A DNA stretch of 64,000 nucleotides. It comes from Lachnospiraceae bacterium (GTDB lineage: Bacteria > Bacillota > Clostridia > Lachnospirales > Lachnospiraceae). A program made the position numbers and the translations under genes. The stretch's first letter is position 1; every line of letters begins with the position of its first letter. The DNA lies in the NCBI GenBank assembly GCA_017624235.1, contig JAGANL010000022.1:605-64604 (forward strand). Direction: 5' to 3'. The notes beneath the pieces are model-generated. The model searched no databases and was not told where the DNA came from. It saw only the letters and a list, made by a program, of their open reading frames with translations. Below are positions 5,910 to 60,953 of this stretch, piece by piece.

Positions 5910-6578
5910 TTAACCTGTGATTCTCTTATCCAGCTTTTTGGAAAGCCATGTGCCGATGAGCTGTAGAATCTGCATCAAAATGACTAACAGAATCACCGTC
6001 ACAATCATAATGCCTGTCTCATAACGGTAATAACCGTATCGGATGGCAATGTCTCCGAGACCGCCTCCGCCTACTACACCTGCCATTGCGGAATAACCGA
6101 GAATGGTTCCGAGAGCAATCGTAGCACCCACAATCAGAGAGGTACGTGCTTCGGCAAGAAGCACCTTCCAGATAATCTGCCACAGATTTGCTCCCATACT
6201 CTGTGCCGCCTCAATCACGCCCTTGTCCACCTCAAGCAACGAGGACTCCACCATCCTGGCCACAAAAGGCGCTGCCGCAATGACTAACGGTACAATGGTT
6301 GCAGTCGGCCCATAGCTTTTCCCGACAATAAACTTGGTCAGCGGAATGGCCATAATCAACAGGATCAAAAACGGAATACTTCGCAGAATATTGACCACAA
6401 AATCCAGAATTTTATAAATAAAGGCATTTGGCTTTAAACCGCTCTTTGCCGTAACCACCAGCAAAATGCCCACCGGAAGGCCCAGAACGTATGCAAACAA
6501 GGTAGAGGTAACCGTCATATAAAGTGTCGGAACGATGCCCTCCACCACCAGCATTCTTACTATTTCATTATCCCACAT
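5910..6578 (-). CDS. metI: Methionine ABC transporter permease
   Basis: 222 aa polytopic protein with the EAA-type loop (…EAAQSMGANLWQ…). Overlaps the metN stop. Confidence 0.9.
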   Translation of the reverse strand: MWDNEIVRMLVVEGIVPTLYMTVTSTLFAYVLGLPVGILLVVTAKSGLKPNAFIYKILDFVVNILRSIPFLILLIMAIPLTKFIVGKSYGPTATIVPLVIAAAPFVARMVESSLLEVDKGVIEAAQSMGANLWQIIWKVLLAEARTSLIVGATIALGTILGYSAMAGVVGGGGLGDIAIRYGYYRYETGIMIVTVILLVILMQILQLIGTWLSKKLDKRITG

Positions 6579-7578
6579 AATCGTTCAACTCCTCCACTGT
6601 CAGATTTCTGTCCCTCAGATACTGCACCATGCGGTCTGCAATCTGTGTATCCTCCGGCAGCTGCAATATCATCTGTCCATGAGCAATACCGCCGATATCC
6701 TTGGTATCAGCTAACAAAATGTTGGCCGGTGCCTTGCAGTGCAGCACCATATTGCCGATAACCGGCTCAAAGGAGGAATTTTCCTTGAAAACAATGCGGA
6801 TACAGCGTTTTCCTGCCATCACTGCATATTTGTTTTCATTCTGGAATACCAGTTTTCTGGCAGCTCTGGACTGAGGTCTGGAAAATACCTCTTCCACCGT
6901 TCCCTGCTCTGCCAGCTCTCCGTTGTCAATGATCGCTACGTGTGTACAGATTTCCTGTACCACGGTCATTTCATGGGTAATGATTACTACCGTAATGCCA
7001 TACTTCTGATTGATTTCCCGAATCAGCTCCAGAATCGCCTTTGTCGTCTGCGGATCCAGGGCACTGGTCGCCTCGTCACACAAAAGAATTTTCGGATCCA
7101 TGGCAAGCGCTCTGGCAATCGCCACTCTCTGCTTTTGTCCGCCGGAAAGCTGTGCCGGATAAGCGTCTGCCTTTTCCTCCAGCCCGACAATCTTCAAAAG
7201 CTCCTGTGCCTTTTTACGCGCCTCACTTTTCTTGCGTCCTGTAATTTCCATTGGAAAACAGATATTGTCCAGAACACTGCGCTGCATCAGCAGATTAAAA
7301 TGCTGGAAAATCATCGCAATTTCTGTTCTTGCCCTGCGAAGCTCCGCTTCGTTCATTTCCGCCAGATCCCGTCCCTCGATACAGACGGTTCCCTCCGTCG
7401 GTCTCTCCAGAAAGTTCAGACACCTTACCAGTGTACTCTTTCCGGCGCCGCTCATGCCTATAATGCCATAAATCTCTCCCTTGTGTATATCCAGATTGAT
7501 GCCCTTTAATGCTTCTACCTTATTGTCCTTTGTTGTAAAGACCTTGCGGACATCCCGGACCTGAATCATTGTTTCCAT
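6568..7578 (-). CDS. metN: Methionine ABC transporter ATPase with C-terminal NIL domain
   Basis: 336 aa. GMSGAGKST, LSGGQKQRVAIARAL, ILLCDEATSALD. C-terminal roughly 100 aa extension typical of MetN. Confidence 0.92.
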   Translation of the reverse strand: METMIQVRDVRKVFTTKDNKVEALKGINLDIHKGEIYGIIGMSGAGKSTLVRCLNFLERPTEGTVCIEGRDLAEMNEAELRRARTEIAMIFQHFNLLMQRSVLDNICFPMEITGRKKSEARKKAQELLKIVGLEEKADAYPAQLSGGQKQRVAIARALAMDPKILLCDEATSALDPQTTKAILELIREINQKYGITVVIITHEMTVVQEICTHVAIIDNGELAEQGTVEEVFSRPQSRAARKLVFQNENKYAVMAGKRCIRIVFKENSSFEPVIGNMVLHCKAPANILLADTKDIGGIAHGQMILQLPEDTQIADRMVQYLRDRNLTVEELNDYVG

Positions 7579-7675
7579 CCGTTATTACCTGCCTTTATCA
7601 TCTTCCGATACACCGTCGCACGGGCGGTTTCCCGGACGCCGGATTTACAGTATCGTACCGATTTTATCATAAAAG

Positions 7676-8614
7676 CTATTCTTCTGTAAATAGCGGGGTA
7701 GAAAGATAGCGGTCTCCAGAATCAGGAAGAAGTGCCACAATGACCTTTCCTACATTCTCCGGACGCTTTGCCAGCTCAGTCGCTGCATGCAGTGCCGCGC
7801 CGGAGGAAATTCCTACCAGAATGCCTTCACTGACTGCAAAAGCCCTGCCGTCTGCAAAAGCATCATCGTTCTTGACACGGATGACTTCATCATAAACCGT
7901 GGTATCCAATACTCCCGGAACAAAACCGGCTCCGATTCCCTGAATCTTATGCGGCCCTGGTGCATCACCAGAAAGCACTGCCGAAGAATCCGGCTCTACA
8001 GCGACCACCTTCACATTCGGATTCTGCTTTTTCAGATACTGTCCGACACCGGTTACCGTACCACCGGTTCCGACACCTGCTACAAAGATATCTACCTTGC
8101 CATCGGAATCCTCCCAAATCTCCGGTCCCGTAGCTGCCAGATGCGCCGCCGGATTTGCCGGATTGTCGAACTGTCCCAGGATCACAGCGCCTTCAATGCT
8201 GTCTCTCAATTCCTCTGCCTTTGCAATAGCACCCTTCATACCCTTTGCCCCTTCGGTCAATACAATCTGAGCACCATATGCCTTTAACAGATTTCTGCGT
8301 TCTACACTCATCGTATCCGGCAGAGTCAGAATCGCTTTATATCCCTTTGCGGCTGCGACAGATGCCAGACCGATACCGGTATTTCCGCTGGTCGGTTCGA
8401 TAATGGTCGCCCCCGGCTTTAACACTCCCTTTTTCTCTGCATCCTCAATCATGGCAAGAGCGACTCTGTCCTTAACGCTTCCTGCCGGATTTAAGTATTC
8501 CAGCTTTACAAGCAGTGTTGCCTGGTCTACCCCTGCCCTCTTTGCAAAATTCGCTGCCTCCATTAAAGGTGTTTTTCCAATCAGCTCCGCTGCATTCTTT
8601 TTAATATTTGCCAT
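7676..8614 (-). CDS. cysK: O-acetylserine sulfhydrylase (cysteine synthase A)
   Basis: 312 aa. PLP lysine motif GSVKDR, TSGNTGIG, GVGTGGT. Confidence 0.93.
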   Translation of the reverse strand: MANIKKNAAELIGKTPLMEAANFAKRAGVDQATLLVKLEYLNPAGSVKDRVALAMIEDAEKKGVLKPGATIIEPTSGNTGIGLASVAAAKGYKAILTLPDTMSVERRNLLKAYGAQIVLTEGAKGMKGAIAKAEELRDSIEGAVILGQFDNPANPAAHLAATGPEIWEDSDGKVDIFVAGVGTGGTVTGVGQYLKKQNPNVKVVAVEPDSSAVLSGDAPGPHKIQGIGAGFVPGVLDTTVYDEVIRVKNDDAFADGRAFAVSEGILVGISSGAALHAATELAKRPENVGKVIVALLPDSGDRYLSTPLFTEE

Positions 8615-36982: not shown

Positions 36983-37054
36983 AGTACTTCACCTGATTTT
37001 CCATAAGCATGTCCAAACCGTTGAAATTGTTGATTTGGCATATGCACACAGAAT

Positions 37055-37083
37055 ATTGTACCTTATTCCAACGGAAAGTACAA
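37055..37083 (-). promoter_or_regulatory. Predicted sigma-A promoter of the priming transferase / LCP operon
   Basis: Minus strand reads TTGTAC, a 17 nt spacer, then TACAAT. An A-rich tract lies upstream, and 72 nt separate the -10 from the start codon. Confidence 0.5.
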
Positions 37084-37127: not shown

Positions 37128-37436
37128 GCATCCCGGAGAATCACTGGCACTGCGCTAGCCCGGGCTGTCCCATGTCGTCTGCCTGCCATCCTTCGAAGAC
37201 GACAGACGGACTGGGGTTTTCTAAATAGCGCAGGGAAAACCTGAACAGGCGGTCGGGGCGGATTCCATGTGCATCCATGCACAGGAATCCTAAAATCGGC
37301 ATCCTTGCCGATTTTACCCTGGGTATTGAATGCGCTATTAAGAAAACACGCAGTCCTTCTGTAGGTCTTCGAAGGATGGCCGGCAGGCGGCATGGGACGC
37401 CCGGGATAGCGCAGTGCCAGTGATTCTCCGGGATGC
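37128..37436. repeat. Foldback element copy A: 309-nt imperfect palindrome with a two-hairpin core
   Basis: Outer arms 37128-37200 / 37365-37436 form 68 Watson-Crick pairs, 2 T-G pairs, 2 mismatches and 1 bulge; the first 30 bp are perfect. Inner arms are 37202-37232 / 37331-37362. Core hairpins are 37261-37289 and 37291-37316. Confidence 0.85.
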
Positions 37437-56587: not shown

Positions 56588-59500
56588 CTAATAGCCAAGA
56601 TAACTTACATTCAAGTCAACATTTCCGCTGATGCCGTTGATTTTTCCCTTGGACGTATACTGCCACATATCATAACGGGTAGCCTTATAGGTCGGCTGCG
56701 CCGCATACTGTGCCAGCCACAGCTTATAGCCGGTCAGGCTGCTCGTATTCATCTTCGTTTCAAACCAGCTCTTATTCGCATAGATGCCTGCCGTATAGCC
56801 GCCGTTCTGGATCGTCTTACAGAAAGCATTTGCTACAGCGGTTCTTGTATTTTTATCAATCCGGTCACCGCGTCCGCCGCTGCCCTCAATATCGATAAAT
56901 ACCGGATAGGATATCTTGTAGCCCTTAATCAGGCTCAGCGTCATGGAAGCCTCTTCTACTGCTTCCACCTCATTGACCGCCTGGGAGAAGAAGTAGATGC
57001 CCACCTTCAATCCGGCCGCTGTCGCTCCCTGAATATTCGTCTTGAACTTCGGGTCCACAATCATCGCACCGGAGGAAGAACCACGGTAGCCGCAACGGAT
57101 GATGACATAGGAAACACCGGAATTTTTCACGGCATTCCAATCAATGCTGCCGTTCCATTTGGAAACATCAATGCCCATATTGCCGGAGCCCTTCATCAGC
57201 GCACCGTCACTGTCAAAGTTGTATTTCATGCCCTGGATGACCTGCTCGCCTGTAACGCGCTTGCCGTCCTTGGTGTAATAGTAGGTCTTTCCGTCTATTG
57301 TCTGCCATCCGGTATACTTATATTCCACATTTTTTGCAAGAATATAGAACTTGGATGCCGTATAGTAATCCGCCAGAGTCGCCTCGACAAACTTACCGTC
57401 CTTATTTTTGATATAGACCTGATTACCATCATTATCCTTTAGCTTGGTCGTCGTATCCTTCTTCGGATTCAGGCGGACGGTAACCTTGCAGGTCGCTTTC
57501 GCAATTTCTTTATTGTCACGCTTGACTACCACAGACACATTCGCTGTTCCGGCAGCCACTCCGGTGATCGTGCCGGTCTTCTTGTCATCCGACGCCTTGA
57601 CTGTCGCAAGCTTTGTATTATCGGATACCCATTCGATGACATCACCGTTTACCGTATTCTCGATCGTAGCCTTTAATTCTCCGGTCAGCTCGGTAAAGAC
57701 AGTCAGCTCGGATTTACTCAGAGTCAATTTCACATCAGTGTTGCTGACCGTGACCTTACAGGTCGCTTCCACCGTCTTGTTCGTTTTCGTCGTAACCTTG
57801 GCCGTAATGGTAGTCTCGCCTGCTGCAACAGCCTTGACCGTACCGTCACTTGCTACGATTGCGATCTTATCGTTGCCTGACGTCCATTCCGTCTTTGCGA
57901 TCTCGTGGCCTGCTGAAATGCTGACAGACAGCTTACTGCTCTCATTGACCTTCAGCGCAAGGGTTCCCGGATTCATCGTCAGCTTCAGTTCGCTTTCAGT
58001 AACGGTTACAGTACAGGATGCTGATTTACCGGAATCCACCTCGGATGTCGCGGTTACCGTTGCTGTACCGGCTCCTACGCTGGTCAATGTACCGCCGGAC
58101 ACCTTTACCACGCTTTCATTACTGCTTTTCCATGTCACGGCCTTGCTTGGCGCTGTGCCCGTACTTCCCGACAGGGTAACAATCGCCTCCAGCTGGAAGG
58201 TCGTACCACCGGAGGTCAGAGTCAGAGTGCTGTGATTGAGCTTCACAGAATCAATCTTATACGGATCCTGTGGAGCAACCGGCTGAGATTCACTTTCAGA
58301 TGGTTTTGTGCTCTCACTTTCGGAAGGATTCGTACTCCCGCTCTCCGACGGTTTTGTGCTTTCACTCTCAGACGGTTTTGTGCTTTCGCTCTCAGACGGT
58401 TTTGTGCTTTCGCTCTCCGATGGATTGGTACTTGCACTTTCGGACGGCTTTGTGTCTCCACTTTCCGATTCCGTTGTATTGCCATTTTCACCATTCGTCT
58501 GTGACAATCTTAAGAAGCGTCCTGCTGCCGCACTCACCGTAAGCGGGTCTGTGATCTTGTCCTTCTTTAACTCCTCATATTCCCCTTCGGTCGCACTTCC
58601 ACTTCCGGAAATCGGTGTCTTCGTGGACTCTACCCACTCTACCGTATCCTTCAGGGCCGGCGCTGTCTCCGGTTCCTGAATCGCCGTATCCTCCACCGCT
58701 GCATTGACCTCGGCCTCCGTCTTGACCTCGTCAATGACATCAATCTTCACATACTCAATCTTATCCTTTACCTTGACGCTCTGTGTACCGGTATAATATT
58801 TATAATCCTTTATAGCATCGATTTCCTTTAACGTCACCTTATAATTGCCCGGTGTCAGGTCCTTTTTATAAATCACACCGTCTTTATCATCATCCGTCCA
58901 CGTAGTAGTCTTGTTATCAGGCCCCACTACCTCTACTTCAAATGCGATGCCGGATATGAGACGATTCGTCGAAGAATTGACGAACTTGATCTTCAAGTCC
59001 TTCTCTACCGAGGTCATATTAAAGCCGATCGCTTCTTCCTTCTCTTCCGCTTCTTCCTCCGTTTCCATCTCGGTTTCTTCCTCAAACAGGGCATCGATTT
59101 CTGCCGCAGAAGCGCTTGCATCCGCCATGGCGACCAATCCGCTCTCGCCGCCTACACCAAGGGTATCCAGCTTATCGCCCACCTCATAAAAGGCGGCCAC
59201 CTGTGCATCCACCGCCTTGGCGCTTGCATAAACAGAACAGGTCACCATAACGATTACCATCACAATTGCTCCGGTTGCTGCCACAAGACGATCCATCGCT
59301 GTCATAGACACGATATACTGACGCAGATTTTCCAAAAATGCCAGAAAAGCATTCTCTTCCTGTCTGCGATGGCCTTTTTTACGATTTCGACCGCTGCCTG
59401 CACGATTCCATCCGGCGCTCAGCTCTTCGTCTCCATAATAGGCTTCATCATCGCTCTCATATTCTTCGCTGTAATAGCTTTCGCCATCCTCGTCCTCGTA

Positions 59501-60058
59501 GATCTCTTCCTCGTAATATTCCTCTCCGTCATACGCTTCGTCGGAATAATACTCTGTATCACCAACCGGAATGAACTCCATGGTTTCCATGGACACCTCC
59601 GGCTCTACGCCTTCGTCTTCAGCCAGATAGGCATAATCTGCCTTTTCCTCTTCCGCAAAGTATCTGCCGTCTACGCTGCCATCTTCCTCTTCGGCATAAT
59701 ATTCACCGTCTCCGTTATAGTCTTCCTCTTCGGCATAATACACCCCATCTCCGTTGTAGTCTTCCTCTTCGGCATAATACTCACCGTCTCCGTTATAATC
59801 TTCCTCTTCGGCGTAATACTCACCGTCTTCGCTGTAGCCTTCTCCGTCAGCGTAATATTCGCCATCTTCGCTGTAGCCTTCTCCATCAGCGTAATATTCT
59901 CCATCTTCGCTGTAGCCTTCTCCATCAGCGTAATATTCTCCATCTTCCTCATAGTACTCTATGTCATCAGTCTCAAATGTATCGTATTCTTCATCAAAAT
60001 TTCTGTTCCTTTTCGCGGCATGAAACCACTTTCCGAAACCGTGATTCTTCCTTCCCAT
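56588..60058 (-). CDS. Large membrane-anchored GH25 muramidase: acidic Tyr-rich cytoplasmic repeats, TM helix, Ser/Glu/Pro repeats, Big_2-type Ig domains, GH25
   Basis: Start ATG 60058 (AGGGAGG RBS). TM helix LVAATGAIVMVIVMVTCSVYA. Several Ig-like repeats (…TVTATSE…, …TITAKVT…). C-terminal [32 protein letters not shown]. Confidence 0.85.
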   Translation of the reverse strand: MGRKNHGFGKWFHAAKRNRNFDEEYDTFETDDIEYYEEDGEYYADGEGYSEDGEYYADGEGYSEDGEYYADGEGYSEDGEYYAEEEDYNGDGEYYAEEEDYNGDGVYYAEEEDYNGDGEYYAEEEDGSVDGRYFAEEEKADYAYLAEDEGVEPEVSMETMEFIPVGDTEYYSDEAYDGEEYYEEEIYEDEDGESYYSEEYESDDEAYYGDEELSAGWNRAGSGRNRKKGHRRQEENAFLAFLENLRQYIVSMTAMDRLVAATGAIVMVIVMVTCSVYASAKAVDAQVAAFYEVGDKLDTLGVGGESGLVAMADASASAAEIDALFEEETEMETEEEAEEKEEAIGFNMTSVEKDLKIKFVNSSTNRLISGIAFEVEVVGPDNKTTTWTDDDKDGVIYKKDLTPGNYKVTLKEIDAIKDYKYYTGTQSVKVKDKIEYVKIDVIDEVKTEAEVNAAVEDTAIQEPETAPALKDTVEWVESTKTPISGSGSATEGEYEELKKDKITDPLTVSAAAGRFLRLSQTNGENGNTTESESGDTKPSESASTNPSESESTKPSESESTKPSESESTKPSESGSTNPSESESTKPSESESQPVAPQDPYKIDSVKLNHSTLTLTSGGTTFQLEAIVTLSGSTGTAPSKAVTWKSSNESVVKVSGGTLTSVGAGTATVTATSEVDSGKSASCTVTVTESELKLTMNPGTLALKVNESSKLSVSISAGHEIAKTEWTSGNDKIAIVASDGTVKAVAAGETTITAKVTTKTNKTVEATCKVTVSNTDVKLTLSKSELTVFTELTGELKATIENTVNGDVIEWVSDNTKLATVKASDDKKTGTITGVAAGTANVSVVVKRDNKEIAKATCKVTVRLNPKKDTTTKLKDNDGNQVYIKNKDGKFVEATLADYYTASKFYILAKNVEYKYTGWQTIDGKTYYYTKDGKRVTGEQVIQGMKYNFDSDGALMKGSGNMGIDVSKWNGSIDWNAVKNSGVSYVIIRCGYRGSSSGAMIVDPKFKTNIQGATAAGLKVGIYFFSQAVNEVEAVEEASMTLSLIKGYKISYPVFIDIEGSGGRGDRIDKNTRTAVANAFCKTIQNGGYTAGIYANKSWFETKMNTSSLTGYKLWLAQYAAQPTYKATRYDMWQYTSKGKINGISGNVDLNVSYLGY
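58291..58482. repeat. In-frame 24-bp tandem repeats (8 units) encoding SESTKPSE-type linker
   Basis: Units start at 58291, 58315, 58339, 58363, 58387, 58411, 58435 and 58459. The middle units are near-identical (…ctcagacggttttgtgcttt…). Confidence 0.85.
59683..59955. repeat. In-frame 39-bp tandem repeats (7 units, two subtypes) encoding GEYYAEEEDYNGD / GEYYADGEGYSED
   Basis: Units start at 59683, 59722, 59761 and 59800 (type I) and at 59839, 59878 and 59917 (type II). The period is exactly 39 bp. Confidence 0.9.
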
Positions 60059-60131
60059 CTTTACCTCCCTGGATGCCTGCATCAGCCTCCCGCTGCCTGC
60101 GGACTGCCCATGCCAGTAACAATTCTGTAAC

Positions 60132-60160
60132 ATTATAGCATCCGCTCCCCTTCACTTCAA
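60132..60160 (-). promoter_or_regulatory. Predicted sigma-A promoter at the head of the glycopolymer locus
   Basis: Minus strand reads TTGAAG, a 17 nt spacer, then TATAAT. 73 nt separate the -10 from ATG 60058. Confidence 0.55.
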
Positions 60161-60214
60161 GGTATTTCGGGGATTTCCATTTTTTGCTTCTTTATTATCA
60201 TGTGGCATCGCAGC

Positions 60215-60487
60215 CATTATCCGGTCGGCGGTGGTTGGGGCTCCGGTCCGCCGCAGAAAATGTCAGACCTGCAGGTGGAGTGAGAGTTTTCTTAATGGAG
60301 CTTTCGAAAAAGCAGGGGAAAATCGGCACGGATGCCGATTTTAGGATTTCACGTGCAAGGATGCACATGAAAGCCGACCCGAACGGTTGTCGCATCCTTC
60401 CTGCTCCATTTAGAAAACTCCAATCCACATGCGGTCTGACATTTTCTGCTGCGGACCGGAGCCCCAACCACCGCCGACCGGATAATG
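60215..60487. repeat. Foldback element copy B: 273-nt imperfect palindrome, core homologous to copy A but in inverted orientation
   Basis: Outer arms 60215-60269 / 60433-60487 pair at 54 of 55 positions. Inner arms are 60270-60301 / 60403-60432. Core hairpins are 60319-60342 and 60347-60372. Confidence 0.85.
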
Positions 60488-60662
60488 ACCACTACGTTTT
60501 CTATATATTAGCTGTTCATCATCACAAGACGGCGGAAATTGCAGCTGGCGCAGGCTGATCCATTCCCCTTTTCGTCAAAATGATTGACTTTTCTATGCTT
60601 TAGTGGCATATTTTTGTAGTATAAGGGTTTTGTCAAGCTGTGTAAAATGGGAGGAAAATAAT

Positions 60663-60953
60663 ATGATGTATATACACTATTGTCCGTCATGCCATAAGAT
60701 CCACATGTTAAACGGGCATAAGCAGTACTGTCCACGTTGTGAAAAAAATCTGGTGGAACTTAAAATCGATTATATGACCTACACAGAGATGGACGCAAAG
60801 GAACGCGCCGAATTGGAGGCTAACTGTGCCATTCCGGAAGAGCTGGACAAAATAAAAACCACCTACCGTATGGTCAAATACAGCAAGTGGTACAAGGAAA
60901 TGCAGCAGGAACAGGCGAAGGCTCAGGAGGAGTCTACAGATAGTAAATCGTAA
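60663..60953 (+). CDS. Small zinc-ribbon protein (96 aa), unknown function
   Basis: MMYIHYCPSCHKIHMLNGHKQYCPRCEKNL… (CxxC…CxxC). GGGAGG RBS 8 nt upstream of ATG 60663. Confidence 0.6.
   Translation: MMYIHYCPSCHKIHMLNGHKQYCPRCEKNLVELKIDYMTYTEMDAKERAELEANCAIPEELDKIKTTYRMVKYSKWYKEMQQEQAKAQEESTDSKS

Follow-up and report, generated by a model that had tools for sequence, protein, structure and literature searches.

A TwoAYGGAY module with long, copy-specific arms forms a probably mobile foldback repeat in a Lachnospiraceae glycopolymer locus

Results

Element B is a long palindrome built around a TwoAYGGAY module

The DNA analysed here, hereafter the window, is a stretch of 64,000 nt from a Lachnospiraceae bacterium (assembly GCA_017624235.1, contig JAGANL010000022.1, positions 605 to 64,604). 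In a surface-glycopolymer locus of this window, between the divergent genes of a glycoside hydrolase family 25 (GH25) wall hydrolase and of a 96-aa protein, lies a 273-nt palindrome (60215-60487), which we call element B; a second foldback, copy A, follows a family 2 glycosyltransferase (GT2) gene. The 64-kb window has no long inverted repeats other than these two, and when all of it was scanned against Rfam 15, two matches and no more exceeded the threshold, one in each element and both to the TwoAYGGAY RNA family (RF01731). The data presented below led us to consider both copies to be dispersed, probably mobile, non-autonomous foldback repeats and not regulators of the glycopolymer locus. 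The parts of element B are as follows.

60215-60269, plus strand: outer 5' arm, pairing with 60433-60487; copy-specific and nearly all outside the Rfam model
60268-60435, plus strand: conserved module, RF01731 match over the full model (168 nt, 77.0 bits)
60284-60301, plus strand: conserved inner stem, 5' side (GAGTTTTCTTAATGGAGC), with T60293 mismatched against T60411
60319-60342, plus strand: hairpin 1, a 10-bp stem with loop ACGGAU (AYGGAY) and GGA at 60330-60332
60347-60372, plus strand: hairpin 2, an 11-position stem with loop AAGGAU and GGA at 60359-60361
60403-60420, plus strand: conserved inner stem, 3' side (GCTCCATTTAGAAAACTC), the partner of 60284-60301
60433-60487, plus strand: outer 3' arm, pairing with 60215-60269 at 54 of 55 positions

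The outer arms are 55 nt long, 98% complementary and separated by 163 nt, and their single mismatch is C60252 against T60450; the inner arms pair at 17 of 18 positions. Hairpin 1 read directly as AAAATCGGCA-CGGA-TGCCGATTTT and hairpin 2 as TTTCACGTGCA-AGGA-TGCACATGAAA, in which C60352 opposes A60367, a pair that becomes G-U on the minus strand. When folded as RNA, element B reached -190 kcal/mol on the plus strand (z = -21.2) and -196.3 kcal/mol on the minus strand (z = -21.0), and on either strand none of 200 shuffles was as stable; the plus strand folded as DNA gave -124.6 kcal/mol (z = -22.7). The G+C content of the two elements was 54% and 57%, compared with 47% for the window. A sequence-only reading of this DNA had described a rod-like foldback with 54 of 55 arm positions paired and one C-T mismatch at 60252, all of which was confirmed by inverted-repeat analysis and by the fold; the T-T mismatch of the inner arms and both core hairpins, including the C-A mismatch, also read exactly as it had given them. 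An independent assembly of the same strain (L110) was identical across element B. Short-read contigs of the window strain reach only partway into the arms, by 30 nt in the Logan contigs L108 and L111 and by 21 nt in the ENA contig L109; L111 stops exactly 30 nt inside the 3' arm of B. Such stops are an assembly effect, because an inverted repeat here meets de Bruijn assembly (k-1).

Against RF01731, whose gathering threshold is 43 bits, element B scored 77.0 bits, with model positions 1-168 of 168 covered (E = 2.7e-11 for the entire window), and copy A scored 81.9 bits, also over the full 168-position model. The P1 stem that closes both hairpins is present and nested, and it is supported by covariation. 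Element B is therefore a member of the TwoAYGGAY family, as every testable defining feature of RF01731 was found in it, and the earlier view of an unrecognised foldback is superseded by this full-length match of its core to a known family. TwoAYGGAY was first described in 2010 from human-gut metagenomes, Clostridiales and gamma-proteobacteria and was graded as "probably an RNA, not cis-regulatory" (Weinberg et al., PMC2864571); the original description called the closing P1 stem "often very large". The structure has two parts: as a single strand, the conserved module of about 165 nt folds into a closed junction bearing two stable GGA-loop hairpins, and the copy-specific, nearly perfect 55-bp duplex lengthens the closing stem of B into the 273-nt rod.

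Copies A and B share the module but not the arms

The second foldback is placed as follows.

37128-37436, minus strand: copy A, a foldback of 309 nt whose TwoAYGGAY core (81.9 bits) spans 37201-37363

Copy A folds to about -222 kcal/mol (z = -24.6), and the orientation of its core is opposite to that of B. Its loops are AAGGAU and AUGGAU, against ACGGAU and AAGGAU in B, so that GGA and the flanking A...U occur in all four loops and one loop of each copy has A at the Y position. The likeness of the two copies, 78% identity, is confined to 164 nt (positions 51-212 of B and 81-241 of A), which is the span of the Rfam model. Beyond the module, B has arms of 50 and 61 nt and A has arms of 80 and 68 nt, which are unrelated in sequence between the copies; within each copy, however, they are complementary, 54 of 55 positions pairing in B and about 90% in A. 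Very few of the pairs on the Rfam strand are G-U: 2 of 112 in B and 0 of 127 in A. Sequence similar to the outer arms was not found elsewhere in the window or in the fetched loci, those of the same strain excepted. We also considered that the arms had been copied from local flanks, and rejected this because they have no likeness to the spacers of empty sites, to the window or to the loci.

The sequence-only reading had proposed a repeated family with copy A as a relative of B, which the 78%-identical core bears out. It had also seen no target-site duplications at either copy, and our scan agrees: no direct repeat of 2-10 nt abuts A or B. A protein-coding role was rejected as well. Reading frames of 124 codons in B and 138 codons in A run on the motif strand in the same frame, but they have no ATG and no ribosome-binding site, their similarity follows nucleotide conservation, and no homologue was found among 5.8 billion proteins.

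Syntenic relatives lack elements A and B

Element B is bordered by the gene of the GH25 wall hydrolase, which carries Big_2 and choline-binding repeats, and by the gene of the 96-aa protein, beyond which lie genes of two EamA half-transporters. The promoter-like sites around it are listed here.

60132-60160, minus strand: promoter of the GH25 gene, TTGAAG-17-TATAAT; outside the element and conserved in relatives without it
60174-60201, plus strand: weak promoter-like site, TTTCCA-16-TATCAT; a candidate with 9 of 12 consensus matches
60584-60612, plus strand: promoter-like site of the 96-aa gene, TTGACT-17-CATATT; outside the element and conserved in relatives without it

The left end of B is 54 nt from the -35 hexamer (60160-60155) of the minus-strand GH25 promoter, a position already given by the sequence-only reading and confirmed by the promoter scan. 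The weak candidate ends 14 nt before the palindrome, and a transcript from it would start a few bases before the palindrome; its TTTCCA lies in sequence that relatives without the element also keep.

Relatives of site B, in which the small-gene protein is 73-77% identical, keep the order NTP-transferase, dehydratase, GH25, small gene, EamA, EamA. The intergenic region between the GH25 gene and the small gene was 228-241 nt in L116, L117, L118, L119 and L113/L114 versus 529 nt in the window, and upon alignment both flanking promoter blocks were conserved in all of these loci, with element B missing between them. The placement of B at the "head of the glycopolymer locus", which the sequence-only reading had named, is thus incidental, since the element is missing from relatives that share this gene order and the two promoters are there without it. 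That reading had further named a conventional short terminator in relatives as an observation that would speak against a specific function. No such terminator was seen at this position; most relatives have nothing there, and L136 has another insert.

This insert is about 215 nt long, has several hairpins and lies between the same two promoters in L136 (about 560-790) and L137 (about 490-720); it gave no Rfam match and is not TwoAYGGAY. Small insertions seem to gather at this spot between the GH25 gene and the small gene. In the P0011 lineage a third element was suspected here, since four contigs end about 205 nt upstream of the small gene. This candidate was dropped because the contig ends differ between samples; they mark a strain-variable junction and do not testify to a palindrome. 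As for the neighbouring genes themselves, the 96-aa protein (60663-60953) has two CxxC pairs and no Pfam match and is widespread in Lachnospiraceae, and its gene adjoins the pair of EamA half-transporter genes in every locus examined. The GH25 gene (56588-60133, minus strand) contains near its 5' end a tandem array (59606-59956) with a 39-nt period, that is, a 13-residue repeat; the protein is 1181 aa long in the window, 1156 aa in L110 (maybe owing to another start codon) and 1091 aa in L116.

Copy A begins 17 nt past the stop codon of the GT2 gene (37453), before the conserved promoter of the priming glycosyltransferase gene. The spacer between these two genes, with the identity of the priming transferase to that of the window, was as follows.

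Window, with element A: identity 100%, spacer 470 nt
L134: identity 92%, spacer 95 nt
L129 and L133: identity 83%, spacer 107 nt
L124-L128: identity 93%, spacer 200 nt
L130: identity 83%, spacer 208 nt

Element A was absent from every one of these relatives, and the genes to either side of the site stand in the same order. An invariant promoter, TTAAGTTGTAC-17-TA(A/C)AAT (TTGTAC), which the consensus scan missed, is situated downstream of the point where A inserted, at 37000-37060 of the window (minus strand). The same promoter is present at about 2930-2990 in L124, L129 and L134; its gene encodes undecaprenyl-phosphate glucose phosphotransferase, and it is conserved across Lachnospiraceae that have an 83-93% identical protein. 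A comparison of L130 (2792-3001) with L129 (2893-3001), which have an identical priming transferase, revealed a difference of about 100 nt in the spacer after GT2, an indel at the site of A.

Because syntenic relatives lack the elements while the flanking promoters are conserved, these alignments mark both copies as lineage-specific insertions, and the earlier guess at a mobile kind of element gains support from the empty sites.

Related modules are dispersed, and their stems covary

The genome scan used the sequence of hairpin 1 as its pattern, and the matches listed were mostly Pseudomonas and Dyella repeats with few Clostridial relatives; the metagenome scan gave five loci. Among the matches listed, multi-copy repeats, often lying at contig ends, came from Pseudomonas californiensis, P. 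yamanorum, P. viridiflava and P. triticifolii, and Dyella sp. ASV24 had at least 25 copies. The 20-nt hairpin 1 is also part of these Pseudomonas and Dyella repeats, and several of the Pseudomonas copies were confirmed as RF01731 by Rfam. In the Pseudomonas and Dyella genomes sampled, TwoAYGGAY is one module of a dispersed repeat unit of 250-300 nt. Psychromonas ingrahamii, a member of the original alignment of the family, has many copies in the same repeat pattern.

Examples of this repeat are L010, L012, L022 and L031 (Pseudomonas californiensis) and L011 with about 24 other loci of Dyella sp. ASV24, and many of the Pseudomonas and Dyella copies lie at contig ends or beside assembly gaps. 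After the module, the repeats of Pseudomonas, Dyella and Psychromonas ingrahamii have a second conserved hairpin, GGTTACTTTT...AAAAGTRAC. The 20-nt hairpin AATCGGCA-NGGA-TGCCGATT is also part of TD-2 RNAs (RF03162) in Treponema metagenome-assembled genomes (MAGs; L099 6947-7045 and L054 4244-4348), and by itself, often as CGTTTACGAAATCGGCATGGATGCCGATTTCGT, it occurs in several Solirubrobacterales and Thermoleophilaceae MAGs.

Relatives of the Lachnospiraceae type numbered four: two in L045, a rabbit-gut Lachnospiraceae MAG, and one each in the hare-gut contigs L104 and L107. The two L045 copies (6284-6511 and 7751-7977) are near-identical and in direct orientation. They bracket a single Acyl_transf_3 gene (6731-7723), an arrangement that resembles a small composite unit. 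All four copies have closing stems of about 65 bp and the same orientation of the core relative to their asymmetric ends. A change in the outer arms, GAGCCAGCC/GGCTGGCTC versus GAAACTGCC/GGCAGTTTC, is compensated among them. Their outer arms further contain TGATATAAT, an extended -10 box pointing inward, which is intact on both strands in L104 and L107 and only on the Rfam strand in L045.

Together with A and B, these four made up the six Lachnospiraceae-type copies that were compared. The inner stem TTTTCTTA/TTAGAAAA with its T-T mismatch was found in all six, and so were the stem of hairpin 1 and its GGA loop, save for one closing-pair change in three of them. The stem of hairpin 2 is wholly different in L045, L104 and L107, with the hairpin shape and the GGA loop retained. 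Compensatory (double) changes occurred at 18 of 55 predicted pairs. The neighbours of the relatives are unrelated to each other and include genes of an aspartyl/asparaginyl-type tRNA synthetase, an acyltransferase, MatE, DUF4097 and Rce1-like proteins; a link of the element to polysaccharide genes was rejected, since other copies adjoin the tRNA synthetase, MatE, DUF4097 and Rce1-like genes.

Signs of the transcribed strand conflict

On the Rfam strand the loops read AYGGAY, and the unpaired linker 3' of hairpin 2 is A/C-rich, as expected for RNA. Within the stems of the six Lachnospiraceae-type copies, however, this strand has about 12-13 C-A or A-C mismatches versus one G-U pair. As C-A and A-C mismatches on one strand become G-U wobbles on the other, the complement would carry the wobbles, and it folds better by 6-20 kcal/mol in all six copies. 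This comparison is of a small sample, and some of the mismatches lie in poorly paired bubbles. The gamma-proteobacterial copies have the reverse pattern, with 39, 27 and 7 G-U pairs on the Rfam strand versus 9, 0 and 3 A-C. In L045, L104 and L107 it is the complement that is the sense strand of the co-directional flanking genes, whereas at copy A the Rfam strand is the sense strand. Judged from these comparisons, the signs of strand appear to conflict, and we treat them as an unexplained conflict and not as a result. The mismatch pattern nevertheless puts in question the strand on which TwoAYGGAY is annotated in this clade.

Discussion

Both copies are, in our view, dispersed and probably mobile repeats that do not move by genes of their own and do not regulate the glycopolymer locus. 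B inserted in this lineage at a harmless spot between two pre-existing divergent promoters, and A did likewise, behind a stop codon and ahead of the promoter that belongs to the next gene. The unit would move as DNA, and its arms may be kept exactly complementary by DNA-level copying or by conversion between the arms of the hairpin. We infer upkeep at the level of DNA because G-U pairs would be acceptable, and 55-100 perfect pairs unnecessary, if selection acted on an RNA fold alone. Element B has terminal inverted repeats of the kind found in miniature inverted-repeat transposable elements (MITEs) and repetitive extragenic palindromic (REP) sequences. The copy number within one genome is two in the window (78% alike), two in L045 (near-identical) and dozens in Dyella and Pseudomonas among the matches listed.

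Several points weigh against this reading. Neither copy has a target-site duplication, and no transposase, HUH or recombinase gene was found among the genes beside either copy. Blastn gave no match for the element in PLSDB plasmids or GenBank phages, and two pattern scans of IMG/VR gave one unrelated match and none; an origin from a plasmid or phage was rejected on these grounds. The cores of A and B are only 78% identical and their arms are unrelated; neither is a recent copy of the other, and they therefore give no evidence of active transposition within this genome. The empty sites could in principle be deletions in the relatives, although precise losses would then have had to occur several times independently. 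Conservation of the GGA loops across phyla suggests that the module is recognised by something, and it may function as RNA. Finally, the excess of C-A mismatches on the Rfam strand is unexplained.

A role of B in regulating the glycopolymer locus is unlikely, since B has no internal promoter or terminator and the promoters of its neighbours predate the insertion. One such role would be that of a cis-acting RNA element, in which the giant hairpin would block transcription, be a site of processing or stabilise neighbouring messages at their 3' ends, as REP sequences do in operons of enterobacteria. A perfect duplex of 55-100 bp would be a substrate of RNase III, and the position of copy A, 17 nt after the GT2 stop codon and on the strand of that gene, means that read-through transcripts would contain it; genes also immediately precede the copies in L045, L104 and L107. 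Element B, however, is situated between two promoters that fire away from it, so that neither neighbouring message contains it. The bases after its stem are ACCACUACGUUUUCU (ACCACTACGTTTTCT), with no T run, and the terminator scan gave no match at B; relatives with the same operon work without the element. Moreover, the gene contexts of the family are unrelated, and Weinberg et al. scored the motif as not cis-regulatory (PMC2864571). We therefore hold a cis-acting role to be quite improbable. Far more improbable still is an invertible switch, in which a recombinase or homologous recombination between the 55-bp arms would flip the core and alter expression of the GH25 gene or the small gene. 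Its appeal lies in the long inverted repeats that flank a 163-nt segment between two divergent genes of a surface-polymer locus, a typical place for invertible switches. Yet no promoter-like site was found on either strand within 60215-60487, the promoters of both neighbours lie outside B and are conserved in relatives without the element, and there is no recombinase or transposase among the neighbour genes of B. A switch also has no need of a nested pairing that reaches both terminal hairpins. The window and L110, the only two assemblies that span B, have it in the same orientation, and in all four L045-type copies the core points the same way with respect to the asymmetric ends. Element B probably has no relevance to the glycopolymer locus itself.

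A role in trans is possible but rather unlikely. Gardner and Eldai noted that both loops match the CsrA-binding motif and proposed CsrA-binding small RNAs (sRNAs) in Clostridia, pending validation. Applied to B, the plus-strand transcript would be trimmed in its stem by RNase III, and the two GGA hairpins would bridge one CsrA dimer and so titrate CsrA; that a transcript of the module binds the dimer in this way is a hypothesis taken from the literature. The loops GCACGGAUGC and GCAAGGAUGC fit RUACARGGAUGU, the consensus from SELEX, with GGA in a hairpin loop (PMC7652899), and the GGA motifs of B (60330-60332 and 60359-60361) are 29 nt apart, while a dimer bridges 10-63 nt (PMC7652899). The weak candidate at 60174-60201 lies just before the palindrome, where a promoter would be wanted. 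On the other hand, the high-affinity hairpins from SELEX mostly have at most 4 contiguous pairs, and very stable stems may hinder binding of CsrA (PMC7652899), whereas the hairpin stems of B are 10-11 positions long. Sponges of this type are known to have numerous sites, where B has two. The antagonist of CsrA known from Firmicutes is a protein, FliW, and no sRNA antagonist is known there (PMC7652899). No terminator-like site was found at B by the terminator scan, and no csrA-like open reading frame was found in the 64-kb window. The copies in L045, L104 and L107 are antisense to their co-directional flanking genes, and the stem mismatches favour the strand opposite to the Rfam strand. The CsrA proposal itself is work in progress in Gardner and Eldai, and a study of 2025 still terms the motif "relatively unexplored".

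A mobile element and a CsrA decoy are mutually compatible, and the preferred reading of A and B as mobile repeats therefore leaves room for a recognised RNA. A more general and more doubtful proposal, which we think unlikely, is that TwoAYGGAY modules are the conserved "heads" of mobile foldback DNA, instead of or besides being sRNA genes. The unit would then move or be repaired via a single-stranded hairpin intermediate, with one arm re-copied from the other, and the GGA hairpins would be the recognition site of a mobilising protein or would spread CsrA-type sites as a side effect. Re-copying of this kind would explain why the arms are private to each copy and yet Watson-Crick paired, why G-U pairs are few, why target-site duplications are absent and why some genomes have many copies.

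Comparison with known systems

In shape, and only in shape, element B is like the inverted terminal repeat of adeno-associated virus, the T-shaped terminal hairpin of a parvovirus, as both have a long stem that closes two small hairpins. Parvovirus DNA hairpins are copied by fold-back priming, which makes their arms exactly complementary. Element B differs in that neither a Rep gene nor any other HUH gene was seen with it, nor a viral or plasmid context, nor flip/flop variants.

With REP sequences and bacterial interspersed mosaic elements (BIMEs), REPINs and bacterial MITEs (such as ERIC, Correia and RUP), A and B share that they are short, non-coding, intergenic palindromes, that they are multi-copy in some genomes and present or absent between relatives, that their contexts are unrelated and that neutral intergenic sites tolerate them. 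Unlike these repeats, A and B have no target-site duplication and no partner transposase was identified, and, unlike a typical MITE, which conserves its ends, they share their centre and not their ends. Element B thus resembles a REP/MITE-type repeat in its distribution; it is not to be filed as a MITE, because the test for target-site duplications failed and no transposase is known.

The sRNAs CsrB, CsrC, RsmY and RsmZ (Rfam clan CL00106) likewise have GGA in the loops of hairpins; these loops agree with the CsrA consensus and are spaced so that one dimer can bridge them. Element B departs from them in its two sites, its very stable stems, its lack of a recognisable promoter or terminator and its multi-copy insertion behaviour.

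The closest comparison is with the TwoAYGGAY family itself. Here the two terminal GGA loops of the AYGGAY type closed by a large P1 stem, the host range in Clostridiales and the gut, and the lack of a fixed gene association are all shared. One difference is the closing stem, which measures about 85 bp in element B and about 100 bp in copy A, its outer 50-80 bp lying beyond the model, compared with the 24 bp quoted for the family. Others are one AAGGAU loop per copy where the consensus has a pyrimidine, and mismatches that in this clade favour the complementary strand. TwoAYGGAY has been catalogued since 2010, and the only proposal for it is that of a putative CsrA sponge. What is new here are near-perfect, copy-specific arms far longer than the family model, together with empty sites, which to our knowledge, from a literature search that was not exhaustive, are the first such evidence for TwoAYGGAY. 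The empty sites, the long private arms and the mismatch pattern make concrete the question of whether this family is an RNA gene or a mobile DNA hairpin.

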